Positions 2,878-18,340 of a stretch of DNA of 24,000 nucleotides are shown here, piece after piece. Origin of the DNA: Belnapia rosea (GTDB taxonomy: Bacteria; Pseudomonadota; Alphaproteobacteria; Acetobacterales; Acetobacteraceae); assembly GCF_900101615.1 (NCBI RefSeq), contig NZ_FMZX01000021.1:10336-34335 (forward strand), in the 5' to 3' direction. Made by a program: the position numbers and the translations under genes. The notes under the pieces were generated by a model. It was given only the letters and a program-made list of their open reading frames with translations, did no database searches and had not been told where the DNA came from. Numbering within the stretch: the first letter of the stretch is position 1; every line of letters begins with the position of its first letter.

Positions 2878-4063
2878 GTGTCCTGACCGAGAAATAGCTG
2901 GTCACTCGTGGTTGGCTGTGATTCGCTGCGGCTGGCAGCGAGGACTGATCATGGCGACGCCGCGGGCGGTTCGGATCGAGTTGTCGGAGGCCGAGCGTGC
3001 CGAGTTGGAGACGCGGCTACGCCGGCGGAAGGTGGCGCGCGGCGACGCGGTGCGGGCGGAGATCGTGCTGCTCGCCGCTGACGGCTTGAGCAACCTGGCG
3101 ATCGTTGAGCGGCTCGGGGTGGCGCGGATGACGGTGGCGACCTGGCGGCGCCGCTTTGCCGAGCTGCGGCTCGATGGCTTGGCCGACGAGCCCCGCCCAG
3201 GTGCTCCCCGGACCGTCAGCGACGAGAAGGTCGCCGCGGTGGTGACCGCGACGCTGGAAACCCTGCCCGCGGGCCGGACGCACTGGAGTTCGCGTGGCAT
3301 GGCCAGAGCGGCCGGGCTGGCGCCGTCCACCGTGCAGCGCATCTGGAAGGCGTTCTCGCTGCAGCCGCACCGGGTGGAGACCTTCAAGCTCTCGACCGAT
3401 CCGCTGTTCGTCGAGAAGGTGCGCGACATCGTCGGCCTCTACCTCAGCCCGCCCGAGCGTGCCCTCGTGCTCTGTGTCGATGAGAAGAGCCAGATCCAGG
3501 CGCTCGACCGGACGCAGCCGCTGCTGCCGCTGCGCCCCGGCCAGGTCGAGCGGCGCACCCACGACTACAAGCGCTGCGGCACGACCTCGCTCTTCGCCGC
3601 GCTCGACGTGAAGGCCGGCACCGTCATCGGCACCTGCATGCCGCGGCACCGGGCGGCGGAATTCCGCCGCTTCCTCGACACCGTCGAGGCCCGGGTGCCG
3701 GCGGACCTCGACATCCACGTGATCATGGACAACGCGGCAAGCCACAAGACGAAGCTGGTGCGAGGCTGGTTCGCCAAGCGGCCCCGCTGGCATGTCCACT
3801 ACACCCCGACCTCGGCCTCCTGGATCAACCAGGTCGAGCGGTTCTTCGCGCTGCTGACCGACGACGCCATCCGGCGCGGCGCCCACCGTTCCACGGCGGA
3901 ACTCGAGGCCGCCATTAAGGCCTACATCGAAGCCCACAACGCCGAGCCGAAGCCGTTCACCTGGATGAAGAATGCCGATGACATCCTCGCCGCCGTCCAG
4001 CGCTTCTGCCAGCGCACCATCGCCGTCCAGGCAAAGTGCCTGGGAACTTCAGAGTCAGGACAC
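2878..4063 (+). mobile_element. IS630-family insertion sequence, apparently intact, inserted in a CTAG target with TA duplication
   Basis: Terminal inverted repeats: GTGTCCTGAC at 2878-2887 and its complement GTCAGGACAC at 4054-4063, with scattered further matches inward to ~28 bp. TA at 2876-2877 and 4064-4065 flanks the element, reconstructing C2875-TA-G4066 = CTAG. One DDE transposase ORF. Length 1186 bp, the usual IS630 size class. Confidence 0.85.
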
Positions 4064-4066
4064 TAG
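2951..4066 (+). CDS. IS630-family DDE transposase
   Basis: 371 aa from ATG 2951 (the ORF-track start 2912 is an upstream alternative). N-terminal HTH region (LSNLAIVERLGVARMTVATWRRRF). Core blocks VLCVDEKSQIQAL, HVIMDNAASHKT and YTPTSASWINQVERFF are characteristic of IS630/Tc1-mariner-type transposases. The stop TAG 4064-4066 is built from the duplicated target TA plus the first flanking base. Confidence 0.9.
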   Translation: MATPRAVRIELSEAERAELETRLRRRKVARGDAVRAEIVLLAADGLSNLAIVERLGVARMTVATWRRRFAELRLDGLADEPRPGAPRTVSDEKVAAVVTATLETLPAGRTHWSSRGMARAAGLAPSTVQRIWKAFSLQPHRVETFKLSTDPLFVEKVRDIVGLYLSPPERALVLCVDEKSQIQALDRTQPLLPLRPGQVERRTHDYKRCGTTSLFAALDVKAGTVIGTCMPRHRAAEFRRFLDTVEARVPADLDIHVIMDNAASHKTKLVRGWFAKRPRWHVHYTPTSASWINQVERFFALLTDDAIRRGAHRSTAELEAAIKAYIEAHNAEPKPFTWMKNADDILAAVQRFCQRTIAVQAKCLGTSESGH

Positions 4067-4262
4067 CCGCTAAGTAGCACTGCACTGCGTGCAGGATGCC
4101 TTGGTAGCCGACCAGCAGCGCCTCGGAATGCTCGGCGCAACGACTTAGCGCATAGTGGAACACCATCACCGGCAAGTCCGGCACTGCTGCTACAGCCTTG
4201 GGGGACGGGGCGCCGCGTTACTCGAAAACGAGGCCGCCCGGAGGCGTACGAAATACAAGCAG

Positions 4263-4290
4263 TTCAAGGGCTCCCGGGTCAGAGTACAAT
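4263..4290 (+). promoter_or_regulatory. Candidate sigma70-type promoter upstream of the twin-GTPase operon
   Basis: TTCAAG (4263-4268), a 16-nt spacer, then TACAAT (4285-4290). The predicted start site falls inside the palindrome at 4291-4311, about 100 nt upstream of ATG 4396. Sequence match only. Confidence 0.3.
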
Positions 4291-4316
4291 CGTCGCGCCG
4301 GATGCGCGACGGTTTT
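4291..4316 (+). terminator. GC-rich perfect hairpin followed by GTTTT; either an intrinsic terminator or a palindromic operator
   Basis: CGTCGCGC (4291-4298) pairs perfectly with GCGCGACG (4304-4311) around the 5-nt loop CGGAT, followed by GTTTTGG (4312-4318). Because it abuts the candidate -10 box, it could instead be a repressor-binding palindrome at +1. Confidence 0.35.
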
Positions 4317-4395
4317 GGAGGTTAACGAGTATGTGATCTGCCGTTCCGTGTTGTCCGACGGTAGCGTCAGCGGCAGGCCCTTTGACGGAGGCGGC

Positions 4396-5031
4396 ATGTT
4401 CGGCTTGGAACTCGCGGGGCTCTATTTGGCAAAATGGGCCTACGACAACGTCGCCCCGCAGCTCGCGCGGGCACTCGCCTCCCCGCCGCCCCCTGACCAT
4501 CCTTCACAGGTCATTGCTCTAGTGGGCGCGACCTGCGCCGGTAAGTCCACGCTCGGGAACCGCTTGGCGGGGCGCGCGGCCTTCGAGACCGGGCCGACGC
4601 ACGGGACGACTTCCCGTACCCACGACGCAACTTGGCGCGGCGGCTGGGTGATCAGGGACACGCCCGGCCTGCTCGACGACAGGTCTCCCGACCCGGTCTC
4701 CGTCTCTCGGACGGCCAAGGTTGTCGTCTACGTCGCCTCCGGCCAGCTGCTGCGCCCGGAACTCGACGCTCTGCGCCGGATCCGCGAGTGGCAGCGGCGG
4801 GAGACGGGCCGGGGTGCGCGGGAGCGCCACGCTGTCCTCTTTTGTGGCAAGGCCGACCAGCGTCACGGCGCGATGCCGCGCGCCGAGGCCGAACGCGTGG
4901 AGCAGGAGGTGCGCTCGCAGATGGCGGACCTGATGCCCTCCGATCACGTCGTATTCGGTTCGGCGCTGAACCCGGATTGCGCGGGCGTGCGCCGGCTCGG
5001 GAACCTTCTCGCGCGCCTCTCCAGCGCCTGA
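4396..5031 (+). CDS. Small P-loop GTPase (Era/EngA-like MMR_HSR1-type G domain)
   Basis: 211 aa from ATG 4396, with GGAGG at 4386-4390, 5 nt upstream. G1 GATCAGKST (4525-4551), a THGTT switch-I candidate, G3 DTPG (4657-4668), G4-like CGKADQ, G5-like GSAL. The ORF-track TTG start at 4198 would read through the hairpin at 4291-4311. GTG 4333 is a possible alternative start. Confidence 0.8.
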   Translation: MFGLELAGLYLAKWAYDNVAPQLARALASPPPPDHPSQVIALVGATCAGKSTLGNRLAGRAAFETGPTHGTTSRTHDATWRGGWVIRDTPGLLDDRSPDPVSVSRTAKVVVYVASGQLLRPELDALRRIREWQRRETGRGARERHAVLFCGKADQRHGAMPRAEAERVEQEVRSQMADLMPSDHVVFGSALNPDCAGVRRLGNLLARLSSA

Positions 5032-5073: not shown

Positions 5074-6390
5074 ATGCTCGACGACACGTCGCCGCCGGAC
5101 AACGCGGCGCTCAGGGCCGAGATGGAGCAGGTGCAACGGGAGCTGAGCGGCGCGCTCGAGAGCCTGCTCAAGGAGGCGGGGGCCCGCCTGAAGCCCGCCG
5201 AACGGGACGAGATCGTCGCGGAGTTCAAGGAACTCGACATCCTGCTCGAGCGCCTGAAGAGTGGCCTCGTCTGGATCGCCATCTTCGGGCGCACCACGGC
5301 AGGCAAGTCGGCGGTAACCAATGCCATCATGGGCGCGGACGTGGCAAAGGTCGGCATCCAGCACGACCTGACGCGAGAGGCCACGGCCTTTGAGAAGCGG
5401 CCCTGGAAGATCGTCGACGTGCCCGGGGTAATGGGGAACGAGGTCCTGGAGGATCTCGCCGTGACCGAGGCGAAGCGGGCACTCGGCCACGTCTTCGTCA
5501 TCGAAGCGGAGCCGTTCGCCCCCGAGATCAAGCTCTTCGACGCGGTGCATGCCGCGACGCCGGACACCCAGAAAATCGTCCTCTTCAACAAATGGGACAT
5601 GTACGAGGGGCGGATCCCCGCGGCGGACGTCGCCATGGTGAAGGCGAAGGTCTTCGAGAAGATGCGCAAGTATGTTGCGTCCGACGAGGACATCGTCTTC
5701 GGCAGCGCGCTCCGCTATGACCCGGCATCGGACATGATGGTCCGCCAGGAACTGCCGCAGCTCATGGACCGCCTCTACGCGGGCGCCGGGACACTCGGGC
5801 AGGTCATCAACGTCATCGACCCGGCCAACCGGGCCTCCGAACTCCTCGCGGGCATATCGGGCAAGGTCGCCGCGGTCCGGACCAAGGTGGCTCGGAAGGT
5901 GGTCTTCGCGTACGGCCTCGCTTCTGTCGCGGGCGGCGCGGTGCCCCTCGACACGCTCACGGTCCAGCCCGGCCTCTTCGCCAGCGAGGTGTTCGTGCTG
6001 TCGCGCATCTTCGGCAAGACCATGCGGGCGGCCGACGTTAAGGGTACCGCGAAGGAACTCCTGAAAACCTGCGGCATCCTGTTCGCCGCCGAGTTCGCGG
6101 CGATCACCGCGGCTGACGTCGCCAGCACCGTCGCGTCCGTCTTCGTCCCGTTCCTGGCGCCAATCTTCGGCATCGCCGACGCCGCTCTGCTGTCCTGGTA
6201 CAGGTACCGCCGGGCGGTCATCTTCGGCGAGGTCGCCATGGAGTACGTGAAGCGGGACTTCTCCTGGGGAGGCGAGGAGCCGAGGGCAATTATAGCCGAG
6301 TGCAAGGCGCGCGCGCAGAAGCACTACGCCCGCTTCGAAAAGGCTTCCGACGCCTTCGGCGCTGCCGGGGCGGCTGGCCGCCGGGCCTGA
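5074..6390 (+). CDS. GTPase with N-terminal helical segment and C-terminal DUF697-like hydrophobic module
   Basis: 438 aa, with SD GGAGGGAG at 5062-5069. G1 GRTTAGKS (5287-5310), G3 DVPG (5416-5427), G4 NKWD (5587-5598), G5-like GSAL. The C-terminal ~190 aa contains AYGLASVAGGAVPLDTLTVQPGLFASEVFVLSRIFG and ILFAAEFAAITAADVASTVASVFVPFLAPIFGIADAALLSWY, which resemble the DUF697/YcjF-type membrane-associated domain. Confidence 0.85.
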   Translation: MLDDTSPPDNAALRAEMEQVQRELSGALESLLKEAGARLKPAERDEIVAEFKELDILLERLKSGLVWIAIFGRTTAGKSAVTNAIMGADVAKVGIQHDLTREATAFEKRPWKIVDVPGVMGNEVLEDLAVTEAKRALGHVFVIEAEPFAPEIKLFDAVHAATPDTQKIVLFNKWDMYEGRIPAADVAMVKAKVFEKMRKYVASDEDIVFGSALRYDPASDMMVRQELPQLMDRLYAGAGTLGQVINVIDPANRASELLAGISGKVAAVRTKVARKVVFAYGLASVAGGAVPLDTLTVQPGLFASEVFVLSRIFGKTMRAADVKGTAKELLKTCGILFAAEFAAITAADVASTVASVFVPFLAPIFGIADAALLSWYRYRRAVIFGEVAMEYVKRDFSWGGEEPRAIIAECKARAQKHYARFEKASDAFGAAGAAGRRA

Positions 6391-7139
6391 TGTCGGACCC
6401 TCTCCACACGCTCGTCGACTTGGCGACGCTGATGGACGCTTACGACCGCGCCGCCGAGGCGCTGTTCTGTATCCGCAGCGGGGCCACCGCCGCGGCGCAC
6501 GGCGCGGCCCTGGTTGGGGCGTCGGAGGTGATAGGCGCCTACCTGGAGGACCGCGCCCGAGGTGCGGGGCTGGCCATGCCGCAGGCGCGGCGCGCCCACC
6601 GGGCCGGGGTGGCCTGCCTCGCGGGGCTGGCCGCCGAGTGGGGCCGGGGACCGCCGGCCCCACTCCGCGTCCGTGCCTTCCGCCAAGCGACCGGCGCCTG
6701 CCTCAGCCATTGGGGCGACTTCATCCAGTGCGCCGTCGCCGAGGACTCCTGCGCTCAGGTCTGGCTGGCCCCCGCCTTCAGCTTCATGACGGCGGTGGCG
6801 GCGGGCTCGCGCAGGCATGCCCAGGACGCGGTGTCCGAGTGCGACCCCGCGCCCGGCGCGCCGTCCGCGGCCGTCTACGCCGAGGAACTACGCCGGGCAG
6901 TCCTCAGCGGACTACGCGAAGTAAAATACCATTCCGAAAAGACGCTCCGCGGCACCTGGGCGAGCGAGGTGGCAGTGAGCGAGTCAAACGCTTTCGCGCG
7001 GACCTTCGTAGACGGTGTCATGGGTGCATTCGGTGACGCCAGCATGCACGGGGAGCACGGCCGCATCCGCGTCGTCCGGCGCAAGGCCGAGTACGTGAAA
7101 AAGCTCAGCCTTGAGCTGGAGACACGCTTGCATGGTTGA
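6390..7139 (+). CDS. Hypothetical protein, translationally coupled to the upstream GTPase
   Basis: ATG 6390 overlaps the upstream TGA (6388-6390) as TGATG. 249 aa, Ala-rich N-terminal half and a charged C-terminus (KAEYVKKLSLELETRLHG). No domain recognised. Several spurious GC-driven ORFs overlap it. Confidence 0.55.
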   Translation: MSDPLHTLVDLATLMDAYDRAAEALFCIRSGATAAAHGAALVGASEVIGAYLEDRARGAGLAMPQARRAHRAGVACLAGLAAEWGRGPPAPLRVRAFRQATGACLSHWGDFIQCAVAEDSCAQVWLAPAFSFMTAVAAGSRRHAQDAVSECDPAPGAPSAAVYAEELRRAVLSGLREVKYHSEKTLRGTWASEVAVSESNAFARTFVDGVMGAFGDASMHGEHGRIRVVRRKAEYVKKLSLELETRLHG

Positions 7140-7204: not shown

Positions 7205-8705
7205 CTATCTGTATGCCAGCCGCTTTGACGTACCCTGGCGACCACGGTGGCCGACCACGACTGGCCTCGGTCTATCGCAGTCCGGAGAGCAGTAATGGCA
7301 CTGCTTGCAGATCAGCCTACCGCACCGCTCGCAGCTTGCGTTCACCCCAATGACCAGCGGGAAGGTGTTGCAGGCGTAGCCACCCCTCTCGCCCCCGCAG
7401 TTGGCATAGACGGTTCTCACCGTGCCGTCCGCTGTCTTCCCGACCAGAACATGCGGGCCTTGGACGTTGAAATGGACGAAGGAGAGCTCCTGCGCCGCGA
7501 CTCCATCCCCTGCTTTGCCGAGAAGGTCGAACAGGCCCGCGATTGACTCTGTCGAATCGTGCAGACCGCCGCACTGGCTTTCCTCAAGGTCGATGGCGAC
7601 CTCGTACGGGTTGCCTGCACGTCCTTCCTGGACTGCGTACGGGAAAGGACGGCCGGGAGCGGCGGGATGTTCCCGCAGGCGGGGCCTGCTCCGGACCCTC
7701 GTCGACAGCGACCCGAAGATGCTGCCGGGCTTGAGGGGACGTTCGTGACTGCCGAACTCTTCGAAGGTGACCATGTCTCGGAGGAAGCGGATGAACTCCG
7801 AGGGCCTGCCGACCTTCTTGCATCTCTTCATGAATTCGGAGATGGCGAACATGGCGATGGTGGCTTTGGAGTAGCCAGCGCTTTTGACCGTTAACGAAAA
7901 CCGGTCGACGATGCTCTTCTGCTCATCATCCAGCTCTCCGTAGAGAGCGGCCTCTTTTTCTCGGCCGCACGCGATGGCGGCGGCGAGGGTAGTCTCCTGC
8001 CATCCTGCGAAGGTTCGCGCTAGGTCAAATAGCTGCTCGTAATCCGGGGCGACGCCGGGCAGCTCGAACGCCCATGCGGGCAGCTTGTCATCATGAAACT
8101 GGATGGTCACGGCGTGTTCGCGGCCCGGCAGCTCGTTGATTGCCGCCTTGACCTTCTCGATATCGGTGAGCTGAACTACGCCGAGGAAAACTTGGTGTGG
8201 CCTCACCGGCCTCCAATGCTCCGTTGCTACGCCAGCGATGGCGACGTCACGACCAGCGACGCGCTTGAACTCCTTGACGTACGGATGTGGGCATCCCTGT
8301 CCGTACTGCAGGTGGTTCTTTACATCCAGATGGTGACCGTTCGCCACAATGTCGCAGCGTTGCCAAAGGCCGGACGAGCTCTTTAGCTGCGTGAGAGATA
8401 CGTCCTCGGCCGGGCACCCGTACACCTTCGGGATGAACTCTAGGACGAGCCGCTCAGCCATTCGGGCGTATGCCATGCGCTTGATGAGGTTCTTGGCTTT
8501 CTCCGGCTGACTTGGTGGGAGACCCAGGCCGCGCGACCAGATCTCGATCAACCGTTTGTCGTCGTCGCTGATACCGCGAACCGAGGATAATACGTACTCC
8601 CCGGCCTCTTCCGTCACCGAAACTAATTCCTCGGCCCGTGCGGCGTCTTCGACGAGTTCCGGGCGGATCGTGTAAAGGTTGAACTTCTTGAGTGGGGCCG
8701 AATGC
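7205..8705 (-). pseudogene. 3' portion of a ~618-aa gene interrupted by IS66; PD-(D/E)xK-like nuclease motif plus C-terminal Cys-rich zinc-ribbon-like region
   Basis: The minus-strand frame is open from the IS66 junction (8705) to stop TAG at 7205-7207, and is in phase with the 5' fragment at 11294-11657 once the IS and one TSD copy are removed. Motifs: MAERLVLEF ... RCDIVANGHHLDVKN (8315-8359), an E...D...DxK pattern. Also CERCGRLICKQCHYCSPDC (~7277-7335). The ORF track lists only the remnant 7205-8617 (GTG start). Confidence 0.8.
8698..8705. repeat. Left copy of the 8-bp IS66 target-site duplication (CCGAATGC)
   Basis: CCGAATGC lies immediately outside IRL and is identical to 11294-11301 immediately outside IRR. 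Confidence 0.9.
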
Positions 8706-8764: not shown

Positions 8765-9247
8765 ATGGGCAAGACGCAGATGCCGCTGACCGAGGTTGAG
8801 GACGCTCCTACGATTACTCGTATGAGTGTGCTTGAGAAGCCGGTGGAGGTGATCACCCGCGGCGAGCGGCGGCGGGTTTGGACGGACGCGCAGAAGCGCG
8901 ACATCGTCCTGGAAAGCCTGGAGCCGGGCGGCTCGCCGGTTGCGGTGGCGCGGCGGCACGGCGTTGGCACCGGCCTGCTCTACACTTGGCGTCGGCAGAT
9001 GGTGGAGGGGCAGCTCAAGGCGTTGATGCCCGCGGCGCCGAGCTTCGTGCCGGTCGCCGCGGTGCCTGACGGCGCGGTTGCGGCAGTAGATCCGCCGGTG
9101 CCGGAGGCGCCATGCTCAGCTGCGAGACCCGATGCCGCACCCGCCCCGATCGAGATCGTGCTGCCTGACGGCGTGATGGTACGGGTGAGTGCGGCGGTGG
9201 AGGCGGCGGCGCTGCGCCGGGTGCTGGCCGCGTTGGGGCGGCGATGA
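8765..9247 (+). CDS. tnpA: IS66-family accessory protein TnpA (Orf1)
   Basis: Contains VEVITRGERRRVWTDAQKRDIVLESLEPGGSPVAVARRHGVGTGLLYTWRRQM, the conserved IS66 Orf1 HTH block. ATG 8822 (MSVLEKP...) is an equally plausible start. Confidence 0.85.
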   Translation: MGKTQMPLTEVEDAPTITRMSVLEKPVEVITRGERRRVWTDAQKRDIVLESLEPGGSPVAVARRHGVGTGLLYTWRRQMVEGQLKALMPAAPSFVPVAAVPDGAVAAVDPPVPEAPCSAARPDAAPAPIEIVLPDGVMVRVSAAVEAAALRRVLAALGRR

Positions 9248-9594
9248 TCGCGCCGCCTGCGGGATTGCGGATCTGGCTGGCCTGCGGCGCCACCGACATG
9301 CGCAAAGGGATGACGGGCCTGGCGATGCTGGTGCAGCAGGGCTTGGCTGAGGATCCATTCAGCGGGGCGGTGTACGCCTTTCGTGGCCGCCGAGCCGGGC
9401 TGATCAAGCTGCTCTGGCACGATGGGGTTGGCCTGTGCCTGCTGACCAAGCGGCTGGAACAAGGCCAATTCCCTTGGCCGACGACCGCCACGACAGGATG
9501 CATCGCCTTGTCGACGGCGCAGCTGGCGGCGCTGCTCGATGGCTGCGAGTGGCGCGCTCCGGTGGCGCGCCGCAGGCCGGAACTGGCGGGGTAA
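9244..9594 (+). CDS. tnpB: IS66-family protein TnpB (Orf2)
   Basis: ATGA overlap with the tnpA stop. GLRIWLACGATDMRKGMTGLAMLVQQGLAEDPFSGAVYAFRGRRAGLIKLLWHDGVGLCLLTKRLE is the signature IS66 Orf2 sequence. Confidence 0.92.
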   Translation: MIAPPAGLRIWLACGATDMRKGMTGLAMLVQQGLAEDPFSGAVYAFRGRRAGLIKLLWHDGVGLCLLTKRLEQGQFPWPTTATTGCIALSTAQLAALLDGCEWRAPVARRRPELAG

Positions 9595-9656
9595 CAGCGC
9601 TGCGATTCGGTCTGAAATGGTAGGCCCGACGCGATGGCCTTTGGCATCATCCGGGC

Positions 9657-11228
9657 GTGCAGATCGACCTCGACACGCTGCCCGATGATCCCGCCATCCT
9701 GCAGCAGATGCTGCGGGATGTGGTGCACCAGCACGGCGCGTTGCATGCCGAGAACGACAAGCTGCGGCTGCTGATCCAGCGCCTGCTGCGGCAGCAGTTC
9801 GGTCGCCGATCGGAGCAACTGAGCCCGGACCAGCTGCAGCTCGGGCTCGAGGATCTCGAGCAGAGCGTCGCCGAGAACCAGGCCGGGCAGGACGCGGCGA
9901 AGGCCCAGCAGGGCCGCCGCCCGGCACCAGCCCGGCGCAACCACGGTGCCCTGCCGGAGCATCTGCCGCGCTACGAGGTGCTGGTCGACGTCGAGCGCCG
10001 CGACTGCCCCTGCTGCGGCGGCACGCTGCATGCCATCGGCGAGCTCCGCACCGAGCAGCTCGACATCGTGCCCGCTCAGCTGCGGGTCCGGGTCACCCGC
10101 CGCCCGCGCTACGCCTGCCGGGCCTGCGAGAGCGCGGTGGTGGTGGCGCCCGCGCCGGAGCGGCCGATCGATGGCGGTATGGCGACCGAGGCGCTGATCG
10201 TGCATGTGCTGGTGAGCAAGTTCTGTGACAGCCTGCCGCTCTACCGCCAGGCGCAGATGCTGGCGCGGCAGGGCATCACCCTCGACCGCTCGACGCTCAG
10301 CACCTGGGTCGGCCGGGCCTGCTGGTGGCTGACCCCGCTCTATGACCTGCTGGTCGGCACGGCGCTGTCCGCGGCCAAGCTGTTCGCCGATGACACGACA
10401 TTGCCGGTGCTCGACCCGGGCCGTGGCCGGACCAAGACCGGACGGCTCTGGTGTTACGCGGTCGATGACCGGCCATGGTGCGGCCCAAGCCATCCGGTTG
10501 CGGCCTACGTCTACACCGAGGATCGCAAAGGCACCCGCCCAGCCGGGCATCTTGCAGCATTCCGCGGCGTGCTGCAGGTCGATGGCTACCCTGGGTTCAA
10601 GCGGCTGGCGGGCGATCGCGCCGACGCCTCGGTCGGCCTGGCGTTCTGCTGGGCCCACATGCGGCGGTACTTCTACGAGTTCCACACCTCCACCCAATCG
10701 CCGCTCGCGGCCGAGGTGCTGGCGCAGGTCCAGGCGCTCTACGCGATCGAGGGCCAGATCCGTGGCCATCCCGCCGAACATCGACGACAGGCGCGGCAGG
10801 ACCGCAGTCGACCGATTGTCGAGGCCCTGCATGCCTGGCTGCAGGTCCACCAGGGCCGTGTCTCCGCCGCCTCGGACCTCGCCAAGGCCATCCGCTACGC
10901 CTTGCGGCATTGGCCCGGCCTGACGGTGTTCCTCGACGATGGCCGGGTCGAGATGGACTCGAACGTGGTCGAGCGCGCCATCAGGCCCGTGGCCCTCGGG
11001 CGCAAGAATGCACTGTTCGCCGGGAGCGATGGCGGAGCGCGGCACTGGGCGATGGCCATGACGCTTATCCAAACCGCCAAGCTGAACGGCGTCGACCCGC
11101 AGGCCTGGCTTACCGACGTGCTGGAGCGCGTCGTCTCCGGCCGGACCAAAGCCACCGAGTTGGAAACCCTGTTGCCGTGGAACTGGACGCCCAGTAACTC
11201 GGCCGCGGCACCCGCTGTCGCGGCGTAG
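9657..11228 (+). CDS. tnpC: IS66-family transposase TnpC
   Basis: 523 aa, GTG start. N-terminal leucine-zipper-like region (LRLLIQRLLRQQFGRRSE), a zinc-finger-like CPCCGG...CRACE, and a DDE core with blocks LFADDTTLPVL, LQVDGYPGF and CWAHMRRYF. Confidence 0.92.
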   Translation: MQIDLDTLPDDPAILQQMLRDVVHQHGALHAENDKLRLLIQRLLRQQFGRRSEQLSPDQLQLGLEDLEQSVAENQAGQDAAKAQQGRRPAPARRNHGALPEHLPRYEVLVDVERRDCPCCGGTLHAIGELRTEQLDIVPAQLRVRVTRRPRYACRACESAVVVAPAPERPIDGGMATEALIVHVLVSKFCDSLPLYRQAQMLARQGITLDRSTLSTWVGRACWWLTPLYDLLVGTALSAAKLFADDTTLPVLDPGRGRTKTGRLWCYAVDDRPWCGPSHPVAAYVYTEDRKGTRPAGHLAAFRGVLQVDGYPGFKRLAGDRADASVGLAFCWAHMRRYFYEFHTSTQSPLAAEVLAQVQALYAIEGQIRGHPAEHRRQARQDRSRPIVEALHAWLQVHQGRVSAASDLAKAIRYALRHWPGLTVFLDDGRVEMDSNVVERAIRPVALGRKNALFAGSDGGARHWAMAMTLIQTAKLNGVDPQAWLTDVLERVVSGRTKATELETLLPWNWTPSNSAAAPAVAA

Positions 11229-11775: not shown

Positions 11776-12552
11776 TTAGGATGATGCGAGCCTCCGCTCT
11801 ATGTCAGGACCCCGGCCCGTATCTATCACGCGCTTAACCTGCATCGGGTGCCAGGCCAGCCCACCGGCCGGCGCTGGCACGCCGCGCGCGGTGAGCGCCA
11901 TAGCGAGCTCGCGCAATGTCTTCGCGCCTGCACGTCGCGCGGCTTCGACATAAGGCAGAACATCGGCAGCGCGGGCGCGCGACATTTGCTGTTTTACCGC
12001 CGCCGCTGCGCGCGCTTGGTCGGGCGTACCTGCGCGCAGGCGCGGGTTACCGAGCACAACGCCCCGCGTTTTCGCCATGCCCAGCGCCGCGCGCGTCCGC
12101 TGGCTGATCAGCCCGGCTTCAAGCTCGGCGACGGCAGCCATTTGCGTGACGAGAAATTTGCCCACTGGGCCAGGTGGCACCATCGGCAAATCGCAGAACA
12201 CCACGCCTCCTTCACCGCTTCCCTCTACGACTCCAAGGAGGAAGCGCGCATTGCGTGCGAGGCGATCTAACTTGGCGATCAGCAGCGTCGCGCGCTGCGC
12301 GCGGCAGGCGGCGAGCGCCGCGGCGAGCTGCGGCCGGTCGTTCCTTTTGCCGCTCTCGACCTCTTGGAACTCCGCAATCACCTCGCCCCCGCCGGCGACG
12401 TGCCGGGCCACTGCCTCGCGTTGGGCGTCGAGACCGAGGCCAGAACGCCCCTGACGCTCGGTGCTCACGCGGTAGTAGGCGACAAAGCGCGACGTAAGAT
12501 CCGGACTGGACGGCGCGGGCCGCTGGACAGGCGTTGCAGTCGTCGTGCGCAC
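11776..12552 (-). CDS. Serine recombinase (resolvase/invertase family)
   Basis: 258 aa, GTG start 6 nt after the KAP stop. Catalytic-Ser block FVAYYRVSTERQGRSGLGLDAQ (~12451-12480 for AYYRVSTERQ). Also EVESGKRNDRPQL, LLIAKLDRLARNARF and LISQRTRAAL, and a C-terminal HTH-like TLRELAMALTARGV. Confidence 0.9.
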   Translation of the reverse strand: MRTTTATPVQRPAPSSPDLTSRFVAYYRVSTERQGRSGLGLDAQREAVARHVAGGGEVIAEFQEVESGKRNDRPQLAAALAACRAQRATLLIAKLDRLARNARFLLGVVEGSGEGGVVFCDLPMVPPGPVGKFLVTQMAAVAELEAGLISQRTRAALGMAKTRGVVLGNPRLRAGTPDQARAAAAVKQQMSRARAADVLPYVEAARRAGAKTLRELAMALTARGVPAPAGGLAWHPMQVKRVIDTGRGPDIERRLASS

Positions 12553-14745: not shown

Positions 14746-14747
14746 GG

Positions 14748-14808
14748 GACAAAATTCTTAGTTTGGTCGAGCATCGTCCATACGATGCCTTCAATCATGA
14801 ATTTTGTC
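14748..14808. promoter_or_regulatory. Nested inverted repeats abutting the KAP start codon
   Basis: The outer perfect 10-bp IR is GACAAAATTC (14748-14757) with GAATTTTGTC (14799-14808). The nearly concentric inner 7-bp IR is GCATCGT (14771-14777) with ACGATGC (14782-14788). The outer arm ends 2 nt from the KAP ATG (14745-14743, minus strand). Confidence 0.45.
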
Positions 14809-14826
14809 ACGGATCCAAACGAGCGT

Positions 14827-14855
14827 TTGACGGTCCGTGACAACGCAACGATAGT
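14827..14855 (+). promoter_or_regulatory. Candidate sigma70-type promoter of the HTH-dynamin operon
   Basis: TTGACG (14827-14832), a 17-nt spacer, then GATAGT (14850-14855). It lies in the AT-rich divergent intergenic region, ~125 nt upstream of ATG 14983. Confidence 0.4.
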
Positions 14856-14863
14856 CTCTCAAG

Positions 14864-14881
14864 CCATATTCTCCATATTCT
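14864..14881 (+). repeat. Tandem 9-bp direct repeat (CCATATTCT x2), candidate operator just downstream of the putative -10
   Basis: CCATATTCT at 14864-14872 and again at 14873-14881. A third CATATT half-site in inverted orientation (AATATG) lies at 14897-14902. ATACGT recurs at 14926-14931 and 14936-14941, 10 bp apart. Confidence 0.5.
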
Positions 14882-14982
14882 CACGAATTAAGTAGCAATA
14901 TGCGTCTGGTGCATTTTTACTTTTAATACGTTTCGATACGTGTGAGGGTGTCGGCAGGGCGACGGGATCAAAGGAGGCATCG

Positions 14983-15279
14983 ATGGACACCCACCACGGG
15001 CGCAAGCGGGCATCACAGCGTGGCTACACTGGCGACCTGATCAAACTCATCCGCAGCTACGGCACCTTCGAAGGTGACCGCCAGATTCTGGACCGGCACG
15101 AGATTGCCGCCTGTTTGGAAGCCGTCGCCCGCTTCAGGGCAAAACTCCTGAAGCTGCTCGACAAAGGTGGAGGCATTGCCGTGTTCCGCGAGGACGACGC
15201 TCTAATTACAGTGTTCAGCCCAGACACCTATCGACGTCCGCGCCGAAGCCAACGTGCTCGCCGCCTGCGTCTGGCTTGA
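14983..15279 (+). CDS. Small protein, DUF4258-like (RelE/BrnT-superfamily toxin-like)
   Basis: 98 aa. Strong SD AAGGAGG (14971-14977), 5 nt before the ATG. HGRKRASQRGYTGDLIKLIRSYG near the N-terminus and GGIAVFREDDALITVFSP near the C-terminus resemble the DUF4258 pattern (H..R...RGI...v....G ... vvv....viTvy). The C-terminal tail is basic. Confidence 0.65.
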   Translation: MDTHHGRKRASQRGYTGDLIKLIRSYGTFEGDRQILDRHEIAACLEAVARFRAKLLKLLDKGGGIAVFREDDALITVFSPDTYRRPRRSQRARRLRLA

Positions 15280-15283
15280 GACG

Positions 15284-17461
15284 ATGATTCCGCTGGATCT
15301 GAATCTGAAGCAGCGTCGGCTGGACGCAAACCTTTCTCAGGCTGCACTCGCCAAACGCCTTGGCGTGACCCAGAGCCAAGTGCTCAGGTACGAAGCTGAG
15401 CCGGACAACGTGCCGGCACGTGTGCTGCGGGAATGGCTCTCCGCTTGCGGAGAGATGCAGGCTACCCGCGGTCTGGACGTCGGCACCCCCTATGCTGGCT
15501 TACCCGAAGGCCTCGCCTCTCTCGCGCTTTACGCTCGCAACCAGCCAGCTTTGGACGAAAGCGATACCGTCAGGCCCGCAATCGGCATTGAGGATCTTAT
15601 AACGGCGCTCGGCGAGCGTGGCCGCAAGCCGCGACTGCTCCTGTGCGGCAGATACGACGCTGGTAAATCACGCTTGGCCAACGCGCTGATGGGCGCCGAT
15701 CGGCTCCCCGCATCCTACCAGCCGGCGACCCGTATCGTCTGTCTGGTGCGCCACCTGGCCGACAAGCCAGCCTGGCAACGCGAAGACGTCTGGATCATGG
15801 GCGAGGGCTTCGACCTGAACCGCGTCGAAGAGGAAAAGCATTGCGAGGACCATCGCCTTGTCGCAGGAGATTTCGAGACACTTGCGCGTTTCGGCACGCA
15901 CAAAGGGCGCCGCGATGCCGCCCTGGGTGAACCAGTTGCCGCCCTGGTCTATGTCGATGCTCCCATTCTGCATGCGTGTGACCTTATCGACACTCCTGGC
16001 CTGTCGCATGATGAGAGAGACAATGCCCTCGCCAGCGCGGTGTTCGCCCGCGGTGATGTTCTAGTCTACCTGTCGCCTCTGACGGGCTTCATGAACGGCG
16101 AGGACCTACGCGCTCTCGGCACGCTCATCGAAGCGCTGCCGAGCAAAGATGGCGAGGCGCCGCTCCGTGCGCTCGCGGTGCTCGCCACCCATGCGCATAT
16201 CGGAGTGACCGACGCCGAAGTGGCAGGTGCGCTCGATGCGGGCGCCGCTCGTACGGCCAGAGAATTAGCTCCGTTGATTGACCGACGCGTCGAAACAACT
16301 GGTGAGGCTATCGATGAAGTGGCGCTCCGCGCCAGATTATTCCCCTGGTACGTCGAAAGCGCGCCCCGACGCGACGCCTTCGAACGAGATACCCGTGAGC
16401 TCCTCGGACAGACCATTCCGATTTTCGTGCAAAGCCAGCTCGACCACACGGTAACAGCTTTTCAGACGCAGGCGGACGAGGCCTATGGCCGCGAGGCCGA
16501 GCATCTTCGCGCTCTGCTTCAAGAGCGTGAGCATGCTGAGGAGCAACTCCGCGCCATGCAGGCCGCCGAGCCCGAGCGTCGGCGTCGGCTGCAGGAACAG
16601 CAGCGACGGATCGAGGCCCACATTACTCAGGCAAAGACGCAGACGCGTCTCTTCATCGAAGAGACGATTAGGCCGATGCTTTCGGAAGATCGATTGCAAG
16701 AGCTGATTGAGGGGCGCTACGACGAATCGAAGCTGGCGGAGCAGCATGCGGCGAATGCGGTGCTCGTCGATATTCGGGCCGAAGTCGAGCGGATTATCGC
16801 CGTCAGAGCCGAAACCCTTGCTGCCGACGTAGAGGCGTTCCTCGGCGAATATGGGCGACCGACGGATGTGAGCGTCGGTCCGATTGATGTCCCGTTCGAT
16901 GCGCGTGCCGCCTTCATCGGCGCGCTTGCCGCTGGCGGCGCCTTCGGAGCGCTGTCCACTTGGGCTGCCGTAGCTGCCGGAGGCAGCAATCTCGGAGCCT
17001 ACATTCTCGTGCCACAGGTAGTCGGTCTCCTTGCGCGCCTTGGCATCGGGATCGCTGGCGGCACGGCGACGGGCGTGTCCCTTGTTTCGGCACTGGGCGG
17101 TCCAGTTGGCATCGGCATCGGTATAGCCCTGACGATCGGACTGTTCGCCTGGGAAGTCTTTGGTCGCTCATGGCAGTCACGCCTCGCTCGGCAGATCTCG
17201 GAGCGTCTGCTGAGCAAGGAGGTCGACGTGGTCGGCAAGGTTACCGAACAATGCGACCGCTGCTGGGACGAGACGCTGCAGGGCTTCCGCGATGCTGCAG
17301 CAAGAACTGAAGATGATCACGGCAAGCACCTTGCACGCTTAGCCGCGCCGCTGAACACGCCCCGCGACGCTTTAGAGGCCCGGCTCAAGCGAGTGGAGGC
17401 GCGCCGCGCCTTCTTGTCCTTCCTCCCTTGGACCCCGCTTTCGAAGGGTGCGGCCGCATGA
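15284..17461 (+). CDS. XRE-family HTH domain fused to a bacterial dynamin-like GTPase with a glycine-rich membrane paddle
   Basis: 725 aa from ATG 15284, which is 4 nt after the upstream TGA (the ORF-track GTG 15254 overlaps the upstream gene). HTH: LKQRRLDANLSQAALAKRLGVTQSQVLRYE. G1 GRYDAGKS (15647-15670), QPATR switch, G3 DTPG (15989-16000). A long Glu/Arg/Gln-rich helical region (EREHAEEQLRAMQAAEPERRRRLQEQQRRIE). Hydrophobic Gly/Ala-rich segment ~16912-17160 (FIGALAAGGAFGAL...GIGIAGG...GIGIGIALTIGLFAW), followed by a helical C-terminus. Confidence 0.85.
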   Translation: MIPLDLNLKQRRLDANLSQAALAKRLGVTQSQVLRYEAEPDNVPARVLREWLSACGEMQATRGLDVGTPYAGLPEGLASLALYARNQPALDESDTVRPAIGIEDLITALGERGRKPRLLLCGRYDAGKSRLANALMGADRLPASYQPATRIVCLVRHLADKPAWQREDVWIMGEGFDLNRVEEEKHCEDHRLVAGDFETLARFGTHKGRRDAALGEPVAALVYVDAPILHACDLIDTPGLSHDERDNALASAVFARGDVLVYLSPLTGFMNGEDLRALGTLIEALPSKDGEAPLRALAVLATHAHIGVTDAEVAGALDAGAARTARELAPLIDRRVETTGEAIDEVALRARLFPWYVESAPRRDAFERDTRELLGQTIPIFVQSQLDHTVTAFQTQADEAYGREAEHLRALLQEREHAEEQLRAMQAAEPERRRRLQEQQRRIEAHITQAKTQTRLFIEETIRPMLSEDRLQELIEGRYDESKLAEQHAANAVLVDIRAEVERIIAVRAETLAADVEAFLGEYGRPTDVSVGPIDVPFDARAAFIGALAAGGAFGALSTWAAVAAGGSNLGAYILVPQVVGLLARLGIGIAGGTATGVSLVSALGGPVGIGIGIALTIGLFAWEVFGRSWQSRLARQISERLLSKEVDVVGKVTEQCDRCWDETLQGFRDAAARTEDDHGKHLARLAAPLNTPRDALEARLKRVEARRAFLSFLPWTPLSKGAAA

Positions 17462-17517
17462 GGTCCGCCGTAGACCCCCAACCCGAACGCAACCGCCTAG
17501 CCATCACTGGAGATCAC

Positions 17518-17838
17518 ATGGACCCGACTGATCCGGCTGCCTTCTGGACCAAGGCCAAGGCCGTGCTGCGCCAAGCTGGCGAAGCCGTGGTGCTGGAGGC
17601 CACGAAAGCCTGGTACGTGGCGCAGGATCCAGCAACGCCAACCCATGCTAAAGCCATGCTCTATGGTGCCCTAACATACTTTGTCCTCCCTACTGACGCC
17701 GTTCCAGACGCGCTGCCGATCATCGGCTTCAGTGACGACCTAGCGGCACTCAGTGCTGCGCTGTATGCCACGAACACATGGATTACGCCGGGCACTCTGG
17801 ATCAGGCGCGCGCGTCCGTTCGGCGCCTATTCGGCTAG
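17518..17838 (+). CDS. DUF1232 (YkvA-like) membrane protein
   Basis: LYGALTYFVLPTDAVPDALPIIGFSDDLAALSAAL matches the DUF1232 signature (Y.isP.D.iPD.iP..G..DDl). ATG 17518 has GGAG 5 nt upstream and gives 106 aa, typical for the family. The alternative ATG 17458 overlaps the upstream stop (ATGA) and would give 126 aa. Confidence 0.8.
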   Translation: MDPTDPAAFWTKAKAVLRQAGEAVVLEATKAWYVAQDPATPTHAKAMLYGALTYFVLPTDAVPDALPIIGFSDDLAALSAALYATNTWITPGTLDQARASVRRLFG

Positions 17839-17847
17839 GGCGCGTCG

Positions 17848-18060
17848 ATGTCGTTCGCATGGTTCGACGATGCTGCTGACTGGGCCGGTCAGGCCTGGGA
17901 AGCTGTGGCGGATGCCGCCAAAGCTGTATGTGACGCCGCCACATACGCCGCCGGCCTGCTCATCCTGATGTGGCTGGTGGTGCACCTTGGCCCGATCTTT
18001 CTAGTTTGGCTTGCCGGTGCGCCGGCCTGGGCCGTGCTGATGCTGATTTTTGGCTTGTAG
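17848..18060 (+). CDS. Small hydrophobic protein (70 aa, two predicted TM helices)
   Basis: Begins 9 nt after the DUF1232 stop. An acidic/Trp-rich N-terminus (MSFAWFDDAADWAGQAWEAV) is followed by AAGLLILMWLVVHLGPIFLVWLAGAPAWAVLMLIFGL. Codon usage looks coding. No family recognised. Confidence 0.5.
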   Translation: MSFAWFDDAADWAGQAWEAVADAAKAVCDAATYAAGLLILMWLVVHLGPIFLVWLAGAPAWAVLMLIFGL

Positions 18061-18109
18061 GTCGAAGCAACTTCAATCAGCGGCTACATAGGGAAAGAGA
18101 GTAGAACAG

Positions 18110-18340
18110 ATGGCTATTCCACCGATCATGGGACAGGCTATGGCCGGTATTGCGGCGCGGGAGGCGATACAGGTCTTTGCCGCCACAGGTGGCACCACCG
18201 TTGTAGTGACAGCAACGGGAATCGTCGTGCCAGTCGTCGTTGCTGGCGGACTGGTCGCCCTCACAGGCCTTGGTATTTATGCCGGCATGAAAGTGGGGAG
18301 GAAGTATCTTGTTGGGTCTGGATTAAGCCGGCCGGTCTAA
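18110..18340 (+). CDS. Small hydrophobic protein (76 aa, Gly/Val/Thr-rich TM segments)
   Basis: MAIPPIMGQAMAGIAAREAIQVFAATGGTTVVVTATGIVVPVVVAGGLVALTGLGIYAGMKVGRKYL. A weak purine-rich SD (GAAAGAGAG) lies upstream. Last gene of the plus-strand operon. Confidence 0.45.
   Translation: MAIPPIMGQAMAGIAAREAIQVFAATGGTTVVVTATGIVVPVVVAGGLVALTGLGIYAGMKVGRKYLVGSGLSRPV

Follow-up and report, generated by a model that had tools for sequence, protein, structure and literature searches.

An operon centred on a helix-turn-helix–dynamin fusion, a probable variant of a mobile conflict module

Bacterial dynamin-like NTPases are found in defence islands as Eleos (LeoA and LeoBC; named 'Dynamins' by Millman et al. 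2022), whose hallmark is a pair of consecutive dynamin genes; it provides defence against jumbo phages and depends on its P-loops. In B. subtilis, DynA is a housekeeping protein encoded on the chromosome, in which two dynamin-like proteins are fused; it protects membrane integrity and is reported to influence phage infection by way of the membrane. BDLP of Nostoc, mitofusin/Fzo1, Campylobacter DLP1/2 and IniA all combine a GTPase with helical bundles and carry a hydrophobic membrane element at their tip. Among toxin folds, BECR is described in the literature as including DUF4258, a putative toxin for which fusions to MqsA-type HTH antitoxins are reported. Finally, the Juk (jumbo-phage killer) paper describes XRE regulators near jukA and JukA fusions to a Ras-like GTPase.

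The operon described here resembles several of these in part. It shares a dynamin-like protein with Eleos, DynA and the BDLP/mitofusin group, and it shares with the DUF4258-type toxin and MqsA/XRE-type antitoxin pairs a small DUF4258-like gene adjoining an XRE HTH. However, the HTH, the DUF4258-like gene, the DUF1232 gene and the small transmembrane (TM) genes are absent both from the description of Eleos and from the partial matches to the LeoA and LeoBC models, and DynA has neither an HTH nor a toxin partner. PADLOC 2.0 holds no model for the gene set, and no paper naming the system was found in the searchable literature, in keeping with an earlier statement that no named system of this composition was known.

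Operon layout and the modular tail

Five ORFs lie on the plus strand of the window, the 24,000-nt stretch of DNA analysed here. The sequence-only reading had proposed a minimally spaced five-gene layout between a KAP NTPase and BREX genes, and the coordinates and the profile matches of the flanking genes agree with it. ORF1 (14983-15279; 98 aa) ends with a TGA at 15277-15279, 4 nt before the ATG of ORF2 (15284-17461; 725 aa), for which the family alignment favours ATG 15284 over GTG 15254. The ATG of ORF3 at 17458 overlaps the ORF2 TGA (17459-17461) and gives a protein of 126 aa (17458-17838), and an alternative ATG at 17518, preceded by GGAG, gives one of 106 aa; the 104-aa homologue in locus L097 favours the shorter form. 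ORF4 (17848-18060; 70 aa) and ORF5 (18110-18340; 76 aa) follow after gaps of 9 nt and 49 nt, respectively. A KAP_NTPase/PifA-like gene, divergent from ORF1, forms the left flank, and BrxHI (E 6e-264), BrxD and PglZ form the right. The claimed compositional contrast was also found: the GC content was 0.623 in the operon versus 0.67, 0.72 and 0.71 in BrxHI, BrxD and PglZ, and 0.46 in the AT-rich control region between the divergent genes (14746-14982), against 0.62-0.72 around it.

Four of the five domain calls made earlier hold directly; that of ORF1 as DUF4258 holds by remote homology only. ORF3 belongs to the DUF1232/YkvA family, as proposed (Pfam E 1.3e-12; 47.7 bits vs a cut-off of 23). Hydropathy analysis showed ORF4 (TM-A) and ORF5 (TM-B) to be almost wholly hydrophobic, matching their description as almost entirely transmembrane. 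ORF4 carries the C-terminal motif WLAGAPxWAVxxxxFGL, which recurs in positional homologues at L094, L095, L099, L001/L014, L015 and L008, most of which were missed by tblastn. ORF5, which is rich in Ala, Gly and Val and has a lower GC3 (0.57), consists of one long hydrophobic stretch; proteins like it in size, position and composition, with weak similarity, follow TM-A in L001/2, L015, L095, L099 and L008, and a 243-aa soluble protein occupies the slot in L094. Because positional homologues recur in related loci, ORF4 and ORF5 are, on comparative grounds, real genes rather than chance ORFs.

The five genes had been taken as one unit, which the related loci do not bear out. Within the close clade, ORF1 and ORF2 are the only constant genes, and their 4-nt spacing is kept. 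The tail is modular, with an optional DUF1232 gene (present in L003, L094, L097/98 and L016; absent from L001, L008, L095, L099 and L005) followed by two tiny TM proteins or by two membrane-anchored GTPases. The window carries the variant with a DUF1232 gene and two tiny TM proteins; in sister loci, the HTH-dynamin and two more GTPases make three GTPase genes in a row.

The HTH-dynamin fusion

ORF2 had been described as having the layout of a bacterial dynamin-like protein, and both profile and fold comparisons confirmed this. Pfam detected HTH_3 (E 3e-8) and Dynamin_N (E 2e-11; 44 bits vs a cut-off of 27). In the Foldseek comparison proposed earlier, the AF2 model (pLDDT 82.7; low at residues 585-628) matched BDLP best (E 1e-12), followed by IniA, Campylobacter DLP1/2, mitofusin and SynDLP; the matches to BDLP, mitofusin/Fzo1, DLP1/2 and IniA ranged from E 1e-12 to 1e-9. 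The XRE/HipB-like HTH spans residues 8-56 (15305-15451, plus strand), has the HipB antitoxin as its best sequence match among solved structures (E 2.6e-6), and keeps R35, Y36, E37 and P40 invariant across the family.

The GTPase core (residues 119-305; 15638-16198, plus strand) contains motifs G1 to G3 and a G4 position. The G1 P-loop (G122-S129; 15647-15670) and the G2 threonine (T149) are each kept in 256 of the 261 family members, and the DxPG of G3 (DTPG, residues 236-239; 15989-16000) is kept in all 261. The G4 position is unusual: ORF2 reads THAH (residues 302-305; 16187-16198), the family reads [TS][HQRK]A[HDSN], and the canonical guanine-specifying Asp, absent from ORF2, is present in only 61/261 members. 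Between the stalk helices lies a Gly/Ala-rich hydrophobic segment with many glycine zippers (residues 545-628; 16916-17167, plus strand), a paddle or TM hairpin with hydropathy segments at 570-592 and 597-627; outside the G motifs, no stretch of the family is more conserved. On sequence and model, ORF2 is a true member of the BDLP/mitofusin class of dynamin-like proteins and carries an N-terminal XRE/HipB-like HTH, and membrane association through the glycine-zipper segment is predicted. ORF2 nevertheless differs from the BDLP/mitofusin group in its low sequence identity to them (10-15%), its N-terminal HTH, the length (~80 aa), glycine-zipper content and high conservation of the hydrophobic segment, the THAH in place of N/TKxD, and its location on a mobile element.

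The matches to IniA and BDLP, together with the membrane accessory proteins and the protection of membrane integrity by DynA, would also fit a membrane stress or repair dynamin of the DynA or IniA type, carried as cargo, self-regulated through its HTH and responding to general envelope damage rather than phage. We regard this as very unlikely; the distribution of the family is patchy and tied to mobile elements, not the core genome, and its genes are linked to toxin-class genes.

The toxin-like gene and the candidate operator

ORF1 had been called DUF4258/RelE-superfamily-like. No direct Pfam, PADLOC or NCBIfam match was obtained, and relaxing the threshold to E<=10 gave no Pfam DUF4258 match to ORF1 or to six relatives; the link to DUF4258 came instead from a profile-profile comparison of the ORF1 family with a Pfam-certified DUF4258 protein (hhalign 97.5%, E 8.5e-12), and an identical protein is named DUF4258 in UniRef. 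Compared with DUF4258-type proteins, ORF1 falls below the Pfam threshold and has an inserted helix. Its family comprises only 32 proteins, encoded on the same contigs as close HTH-dynamins, with R9, R13, G14, G27, G31, R33, D60, K61, G63 and T76 invariant. The AF2 model was weak (pLDDT 69.8), and no fold match was found for it. From its family membership and the toxin-then-HTH gene order, which is as claimed earlier, we infer that ORF1, a divergent DUF4258-like protein, is a putative RNase-type toxin of the BECR fold class, or another effector.

In the control region, a strong SD (AAGGAGG) lies 7 nt before the ORF1 ATG (14983). A single sigma-70-like site (14827-14855) is no more than expected by chance, and two inverted repeats (14748-14757/14799-14808 and 14804-14813/14834-14843) are specific to the window. 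At 14900-14914 lies an imperfect palindrome of 6-3-6 layout, ATGCGT-CTG-GTGCAT, with a T-run after it. It has no significance on its own within the window, and as an RNA hairpin it is weak (-2.4 kcal/mol, z +0.62). Related loci carry the same box 70-110 nt ahead of their ORF1 homologue, in the exact form ATGCGT-N3-ACGCAT in L005/6, L007 and L095/96 and nowhere else among the 99 loci. Comparison of five HTH recognition-helix classes revealed that the palindrome arms shift symmetrically with class. This co-variation argues for autoregulation and supports the ORF2 HTH as an autorepressor acting through the candidate operator. MqsA binds a palindrome that also has a 6-3-6 layout. Of the two roles suggested earlier for the HTH, that of repressor is thus supported, and that of antitoxin is conjecture.

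The gene order with near-coupled translation, the HipB-like HTH, the palindrome and the occurrence of relatives on plasmids and integrative elements might all be expected of a type II toxin-antitoxin module that serves only for addiction and would stabilise a mobile element without any anti-phage role, ORF1 being the toxin and the ORF2 HTH the antitoxin and repressor. Such a module, however, needs no 725-aa membrane NTPase with conserved catalytic motifs, of which the HTH makes up only the first 60 residues, and the family lies repeatedly amid defence genes and beside the portal/terminase genes of a P2-like prophage; we consider this reading quite improbable. Moreover, most of the wider HTH-dynamin family lacks an ORF1-like neighbour, so the HTH did not arise as the antitoxin to ORF1.

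Distribution of the family and proposed role

The HTH-dynamin fusion is not rare: the family comprises 541 clusters at 50% identity, patchily distributed over many phyla. Of 5426 complete E. coli genomes, 122 carry it; in E. coli, its island also holds a neighbouring reverse-transcriptase gene. The proposed survey of recurrence located relatives within defence islands and mobile elements, plasmids and integrative elements included, with integrases, transposases, MmeI, GmrSD, type I RM, SNF2, BREX and KAP/PifA as neighbours; the flanking proteins match many PADLOC models, a result expressed as numbers of models matched and not as the share of neighbours that match. A P2-like Vibrio prophage carries the gene between its replication gene and its portal/terminase genes, a site that we take to be the P2 defence hotspot. 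On Acinetobacter plasmids, JukA and a related DUF4258 gene form one operon directly upstream of and divergent from the HTH-dynamin, whereas the window and its close relatives lack JukA. The gene cluster is mobile and belongs to a large, unnamed family, linked to mobile elements rather than the core genome.

The only PADLOC similarity of ORF2 is to the LeoBC and LeoA models (E 1e-12 and 1e-10), which match the stalk and hydrophobic tip. This match, the resemblance of the three-GTPase sister loci to a LeoABC triad, the many solo HTH-dynamins and the P-loop requirement of Eleos are compatible with a divergent Eleos-type system, in which one or more dynamin-like proteins alone would defend by membrane- or capsid-directed mechanics, the HTH being only a regulator and ORF1 and ORF3-5 non-toxin accessories. 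The matches are partial (residues 383-702, ~45 bits), and the strict ORF1 linkage in the close clade and the nuclease-toxin partners in another suggest effectors beyond the dynamin, so that we consider this account unlikely. With a single dynamin gene in the window, identity with Eleos itself was rejected.

We favour, with moderate confidence, a dynamin-centred, toxin-coupled conflict module. Its engine would be a membrane-anchored dynamin-like NTPase similar to BDLP, mitofusin and LeoB, to which an XRE-type HTH is fused N-terminally. The HTH dimer would bind the palindrome upstream of ORF1 and repress the operon, as the comparative data suggest, and the glycine-zipper segment would hold ORF2 in or on the inner membrane, possibly in partnership with the DUF1232 protein and the two small TM proteins. 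Dynamins, DynA and Eleos suggest by analogy that a phage-induced membrane event may trigger nucleotide-dependent self-assembly of ORF2. Once assembled, ORF2 could act in either of two ways: it could remodel or permeabilise the membrane directly, or its HTH could let go of both DNA and ORF1, which would then act as an RNase-type toxin. The tail is interchangeable between two TM proteins and two TM GTPases, with other partners in other clades, such as a Tox-GHH nuclease.

The lack of a direct Pfam match for ORF1, its low-confidence model with no fold match, the ORF1-less wider family, the opposite strand of the Acinetobacter DUF4258 gene, the missing Asp at G4 and the palindrome's lack of significance on its own count against the toxin-coupled module. 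Swappable partner sets including the Tox-GHH nuclease toxin, patchy occurrence across phyla, defence and mobile neighbours, plasmids and a prophage are the behaviour of a conflict system. The operon is best read as one variant of a conflict module that is widespread and moves horizontally, with defence against phage or abortive infection as its most likely role. Since members of the family are found in defence islands, on plasmids and in prophages, an anti-phage system not characterised before is the probable identity of the operon.

ORF layout and the HTH-dynamin encoded by ORF2

All five same-direction ORFs located by the sequence-only reading at 14983-18340 were found there on the + strand: ORF1 (14983-15279, 98 aa), ORF2 (15284-17461, 725 aa), ORF3 (17458-17838, 126 aa), ORF4 (17848-18060, 70 aa), and ORF5 (18110-18340, 76 aa). 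The TGA of ORF1 (15277-15279) is followed by the ATG of ORF2 at 15284; the TGA of ORF2 (17459-17461) is overlapped by ATG 17458 of ORF3, for which an alternative ATG preceded by GGAG is present at 17518; and the ORF3/ORF4 and ORF4/ORF5 gaps are 9 nt and 49 nt, respectively. A GTG at 15254 was rejected as the start of ORF2 because the N-termini of the family align with ATG 15284. The GC content of the operon (0.623) is lower than that of the BREX genes on its flank (BrxHI, 0.67; BrxD, 0.72; PglZ, 0.71), and the intergenic region upstream of the operon is AT-rich (GC content, 0.46), as the earlier reading had noted.

The proposed layout of ORF2, a bacterial dynamin-like protein with an N-terminal HTH, was supported concordantly by Pfam, an AlphaFold2 (AF2) model, and Foldseek. 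Pfam assigned residues 8-56 to HTH_3 (E 3e-8) and residues 119-267 to Dynamin_N (44.4 bits against a cut-off of 27), and the nearest relative of the HTH by sequence was the HipB antitoxin (E 2.6e-6). The AF2 model (pLDDT 82.7, with 35 homologues in the alignment) showed the HTH, the GTPase domain, a long helix (residues 360-465), further helices, a poorly modeled hydrophobic stretch, and C-terminal helices, in this order; the modeled helices at 360-524 and 630-712 flank a glycine-zipper-rich hydrophobic segment (residues 545-628), which ranks with the best-conserved stretches in the family. The best Foldseek match was BDLP (2j69; E 1.2e-12, probability 1.0), and IniA, Campylobacter DLP1/2, mitofusin/Fzo1, and SynDLP were also matched. 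The motifs G1 (GRYDAGKS, 122-129), G2 (T149), and G3 (DTPG, 236-239) are kept in 256-261 of 261 relatives. As judged from its sequence and model, ORF2 belongs to the BDLP class of NTPases; its catalytic motifs are intact, and it has a predicted membrane element that is hydrophobic and conserved.

The G4 position, which was assigned from a strand of the AF2 model and not by structural superposition, falls on T302-H303-A304-H305 (16187-16198) and does not match the canonical (N/T)KxD motif. The family consensus at this position is [TS][HQRK]A[HDSN], with the guanine-specifying Asp in 61 and His in 129 of the 261 relatives. Since the guanine-binding Asp is missing from this position, parts of the HTH-dynamin family could possibly use a nucleotide other than GTP.

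Partner genes in the close clade and a candidate operator

ORF1 had no direct match in Pfam, NCBIfam, or PADLOC; seven members of its family gave no Pfam match even at E<=10, and a search of PDB sequences with its profile found nothing. The family profile aligned with an Acinetobacter plasmid protein (hhalign probability 97.5%, E 8.5e-12) that passes the Pfam DUF4258 cut-off (27.2 bits against 25), and UniRef holds an identical protein from Belnapia rosea under the label DUF4258. The AF2 model of ORF1 was of low quality (pLDDT 69.8) and had no structural match, so ORF1 is DUF4258-like by sequence-profile homology only. The DUF4258/RelE-like pattern claimed for ORF1 therefore stands on profile homology and the UniRef label, but not on a direct Pfam match or a fold match. 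Published work assigns DUF4258, as a putative toxin, to the BECR fold of toxins, in the RelE/ParE branch in one paper and in a colicin-like/Ntox49 branch in another, and fusions of DUF4258 with MqsA-type HTH antitoxins are on record.

ORF3 carries the DUF1232/YkvA signature, as had been recognized (PF06803; 47.7 bits against a cut-off of 23, E 1.3e-12, residues 64-99). ORF4 and ORF5 are indeed small hydrophobic proteins, with no direct profile match in Pfam, NCBIfam, or PADLOC. In the close clade, defined as homologues with at least 47% identity to ORF2 and consisting entirely of Alphaproteobacteria-like members, an ORF1 homologue always lies 4 nt 5' of the dynamin gene, and the ORF1 family numbers only 32 members, on contigs of this clade. 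The DUF1232 gene is present in the window and in L003, L094, L097, and L016 but absent from the remaining close-clade loci. The DUF1232 slot is followed either by two small transmembrane (TM) proteins or, in L005/6, L097/98, and L016, by two membrane-anchored GTPases of approximately 383-449 and 510-523 aa. A tblastn search with ORF3-5 had suggested that the tail is unconserved; inspection by eye and MAFFT alignment showed otherwise for ORF4 and, in part, for ORF5. Positional homologues of ORF4 occur in seven loci and share the C-terminal motif [WFY]L[ALV]GAPxWxVxxxxFG, and in most of these loci an Ala/Gly/Val-rich, ORF5-like peptide comes next. The closest match to the gene set of the window is L094, in which the first four genes are present. 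The five-gene arrangement is thus a real and recurring configuration but not the conserved unit, which consists of a two-gene core (ORF1 and ORF2) with a variable tail. In the close clade, the sequences compared show a tight linkage between the HTH-dynamin and a DUF4258-like gene, and the tail is modular.

Upstream of ORF1, the sequence ATGCGT-CTG-GTGCAT (14900-14914), followed by a T-run, forms a candidate operator. Related loci carry this 6-3-6 palindrome 70-110 nt 5' of the ORF1 homologue, and its arms differ symmetrically between the recognition-helix classes of the HTH. The helix VTQ[ST]Q (window, L005, L007, L095, L099) is paired with ATGCGT…ACGCAT, VTPSQ (L008, L094) with ATTGCG…CGCAAT, VSQAQ (L003) with ATACGT…ACGTAT, IAQSQ (L001/L014, L015) with ATGCT[CG]…[GC]AGCAT, and LHPTQ (L016; imperfect in L097) with two copies of TCACTC-N2-GAGTGA. 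The exact form ATGCGT-N3-ACGCAT occurred only in L005/6, L007, and L095/96 among the 99 loci compared; more than 10 loci have the box in a conserved, co-varying form, and the window copy has two mismatches. The support is comparative: within the window alone, the match was not significant (at least one match in 58 of 100 shuffles). A pattern with an N4 spacer gave no match, the N3 spacer being correct. An intrinsic terminator or attenuator made of the palindrome and the T-run is unlikely because the hairpins are weak (-2.4 kcal/mol and z +0.62 in the window) and there is no co-directional gene upstream in the window. The palindrome is best read as a candidate operator that would be bound by the HTH of ORF2, i.e., as an element of autoregulation.

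In the LHPTQ clade, the palindrome copies lie at 1161-1174 and 1221-1234 of L016 and at about 1195-1215 and 1255-1275 of L097, with one copy before a -35-like TTGAAT and the other immediately ahead of the ribosome-binding site that serves the ORF1 homologue. The region upstream of ORF1 in the window also contains two perfect 10-nt inverted repeats with a TTGTC/GACAA core (14748-14757/14799-14808 and 14804-14813/14834-14843), the second of which encloses the -35-like hexamer belonging to the single sigma-70-like site, and these are followed by two tandem copies of CCATATTCT at 14864-14881. None of these repeats was seen in related loci; the elements between 14748 and 14881 may serve to control the KAP NTPase gene, which is transcribed divergently.

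Genomic context and the wider HTH-dynamin family

Profile matches on both flanks bore out the position of the operon between a KAP NTPase gene (KAP_NTPase, E 1.7e-18; PADLOC PifA, 4.7e-22) on the left and the tail of a type 2 BREX system (BrxHI, 5.8e-264; BrxD, 1.3e-138; PglZ) on the right. The operon is distinct from the BREX type 2 gene set (PglW/X/Y/Z, BrxD, BrxHI): ORF1-5 matched no BREX model in PADLOC, and the BREX genes start at 18429 on the opposite strand. Homologous operons were also found without BREX. The window further carries a type IV secretion coupling protein (TraG/VirD4-like), a DDE_3 transposase, parts of IS66-family transposases, and a serine resolvase, with mobile-element genes at 145-1473, 2912-4066, 8765-11228, and 11776-12552; as a whole it looks like part of a conjugative/integrative element with stacked defense cargo.

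The same island contains a second pair of GTPase genes (4198-5031 and 5074-6390, + strand; 277 and 438 aa) that matched MMR_HSR1, AIG1, and, weakly, Dynamin_N; PADLOC matches to LeoA (4e-8) and LeoBC (5e-12) covered the P-loop part only, and the C-terminal region of the 438-aa protein is hydrophobic. We considered this pair as a displaced tail of the operon and rejected the idea; since its similarity to the tail GTPases of L005 and L097 is only at the P-loop level, it is probably a separate GTPase-based module. Three long ORFs of 484, 470, and 279 aa (1400-2854, +; 7205-8617, -; 6300-7139, +) had no Pfam or PADLOC match, and some of them may be shadow ORFs because of the high GC content.

A word-indexed search returned 38 relatives of ORF2, and an exhaustive profile search returned 541 clusters (50% identity) at E<=1e-30; among the best 150 of these 541 clusters, the alignment runs from the HTH to the C-terminus for most. 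This extent shows the HTH-dynamin fusion to be an old, large, and widespread family rather than a local oddity. A scan of one genome per species found HTH-dynamins in 87 species, including Cyanobacteria, Bacillota, Bacteroidota, Alpha-, Beta-, and Gammaproteobacteria, Acidobacteriota, Spirochaetes, Actinobacteria, and others. A scan of IMG/VR with the family alignment, limited by peptide patterns, gave an HTH-only match alone.

Many members of the wider family are solo genes. Eleven Bacillota/Bacteroidota loci (L055, L058, L061, L063, L064, L066-L068, L070, L088, and L091) share a four-gene operon encoding the HTH-dynamin and proteins of approximately 278, 389, and 129 aa. The 389-aa product of the third gene contains a Tox-GHH HNH/EndoVII nuclease toxin domain (E 5.7e-14); the 278- and 129-aa proteins had no Pfam or PADLOC match. 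One gammaproteobacterial clade has a partner of approximately 175 aa, and in E. coli and Atlantibacter the partner is a 311-aa hypothetical protein; the latter pair, WP_000998321/WP_001493615 in E. coli, was found in 122 of 5426 complete E. coli genomes (about 2%). The E. coli HTH-dynamin is annotated merely as a 'dynamin family protein' (L100, 9070-12314, strain DA33135), and in this one strain examined, the pair lies in an island, adjoining a 3.7-kb reverse-transcriptase gene with a frameshift; a fragment of an integrase gene and IS elements are also present there.

Close relatives have among their neighbors integrases, transposases, MmeI-type enzymes, GmrSD, type I restriction-modification, SNF2 helicases, GIY-YIG proteins, and plasmid Rep/Par genes. 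Plasmid-borne homologues occur in Acinetobacter, Carboxydocella, Lactococcus, and Lactiplantibacillus, and P2-like Vibrio prophages carry the dynamin gene between a replication gene and the portal/terminase genes, a slot that we take to be the classic P2 defense hotspot, home of defense cargo. In one P2-like prophage (Vibrio phage 10N.286.55.A5_PE003; L013, 4962-7259), a dynamin-family homologue with Dynamin_N only and no Pfam HTH match is paired with a 179-aa protein; the portal/terminase genes lie on one side of the pair and the gene A/late-control region on the other. PADLOC analysis of 126 flanking proteins matched many models, namely those for methyltransferases, PDC-S03, mad3/8, JukA, AriA, PD-Lambda-5_B, and MzaB; this is a qualitative indication of defense-gene enrichment near the family, since the figures count matching models and not a fraction of neighbors. 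The HTH-dynamin family is mobile and is found among defense genes.

Relation to known systems and proposed function

The closest named system is Eleos, which is defined in the literature by two consecutive dynamin genes with the P-loops of both required and for which a defense-neighborhood score of roughly 60% has been reported. ORF2, by contrast, is the only GTPase within 14983-18340, and its PADLOC matches to LeoBC (45.7 bits; residues 383-702 on model positions 303-565) and LeoA (39.3 bits) were partial; therefore, membership in Eleos fails. The sequence matches nonetheless show that the stalk and paddle are truly related to LeoB(C), and the sister loci with three GTPases (L005, L097, and L016) are closer to LeoABC. 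The operon also differs from a typical type II toxin-antitoxin system because its HTH belongs to a 725-aa dynamin-like protein and there is no small, labile antitoxin.

JukA (DUF3944/YaaW), of the jumbo-phage killer JukAB, had no PADLOC match among seven proteins of the window (ORF1-5 and the products of the two flanking genes). JukA was found only in Acinetobacter, where an operon of JukA (DUF3944; PADLOC E 5e-71) and DUF4258 lies directly 5' of, and divergent from, the HTH-dynamin gene (L010, 1030-2040; L022, 4825-5835); this JukA weakly matches the LeoBC model (E 7e-6). There are hints of a wider link among JukA sensors, DUF4258 effectors, and dynamin-like proteins.

PADLOC 2.0 holds no model for the HTH-dynamin or any partner scanned, and we found no named HTH-dynamin, dynamin plus DUF1232, or dynamin plus Tox-GHH system in the searchable, non-subscription literature, nor any mention there of the RefSeq accessions. 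In this sense the system appears to be undescribed, as the sequence-only reading had proposed, and it belongs to a large unnamed family. Its candidacy as a defense system is reasonable and was strengthened by the genomic context and the candidate operator, although the five genes are not the unit.

The module may act in phage defense or abortive infection. A membrane event would trigger nucleotide-driven assembly of ORF2, which would then act directly on the membrane or have its HTH freed from the DNA and from ORF1; the freed ORF1 would act as an RNase-type toxin. We regard this general model, a dynamin-centered defense or abortive-infection module, as slightly better than an even bet. Within it, the idea that ORF2 holds ORF1 in check is rather doubtful; no other step is as weak, given that an ORF1-like partner is missing from most of the HTH-dynamin family. 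The pairing of the same core with a nuclease toxin in other clades supports the logic of a sensor with swappable effectors. More speculatively, and in our estimate improbably, HTH-dynamins may constitute a new class of immune hub, a mechanochemical membrane NTPase that is at once a sensor of a phage-induced membrane event, a repressor of its own operon, and an antitoxin for swappable effectors, with assembly at the membrane as the switch from repression to effector release. Such a hub would have a BECR RNase as its effector in this operon, a GHH nuclease in Bacillota/Bacteroidota, and TM peptides or extra GTPases elsewhere.

To our knowledge, dynamins in bacterial immunity are known only from Eleos and DynA, and both mechanisms are obscure. 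The findings partly support a system that combines dynamin-based defense, a putative function, with toxin-antitoxin logic. The family offers a compact, genetically tractable dynamin with a built-in DNA-binding readout, a predicted operator, a candidate toxin partner, and natural module swaps, and its homologues in E. coli genomes and P2-like prophages add to this tractability. If it is defensive, membrane mechanics would be joined to transcriptional and toxin control within one polypeptide, and the family would provide a handle on infection sensing by dynamin-type immune proteins, including relatives of Mx, GIMAP, and mitofusin.
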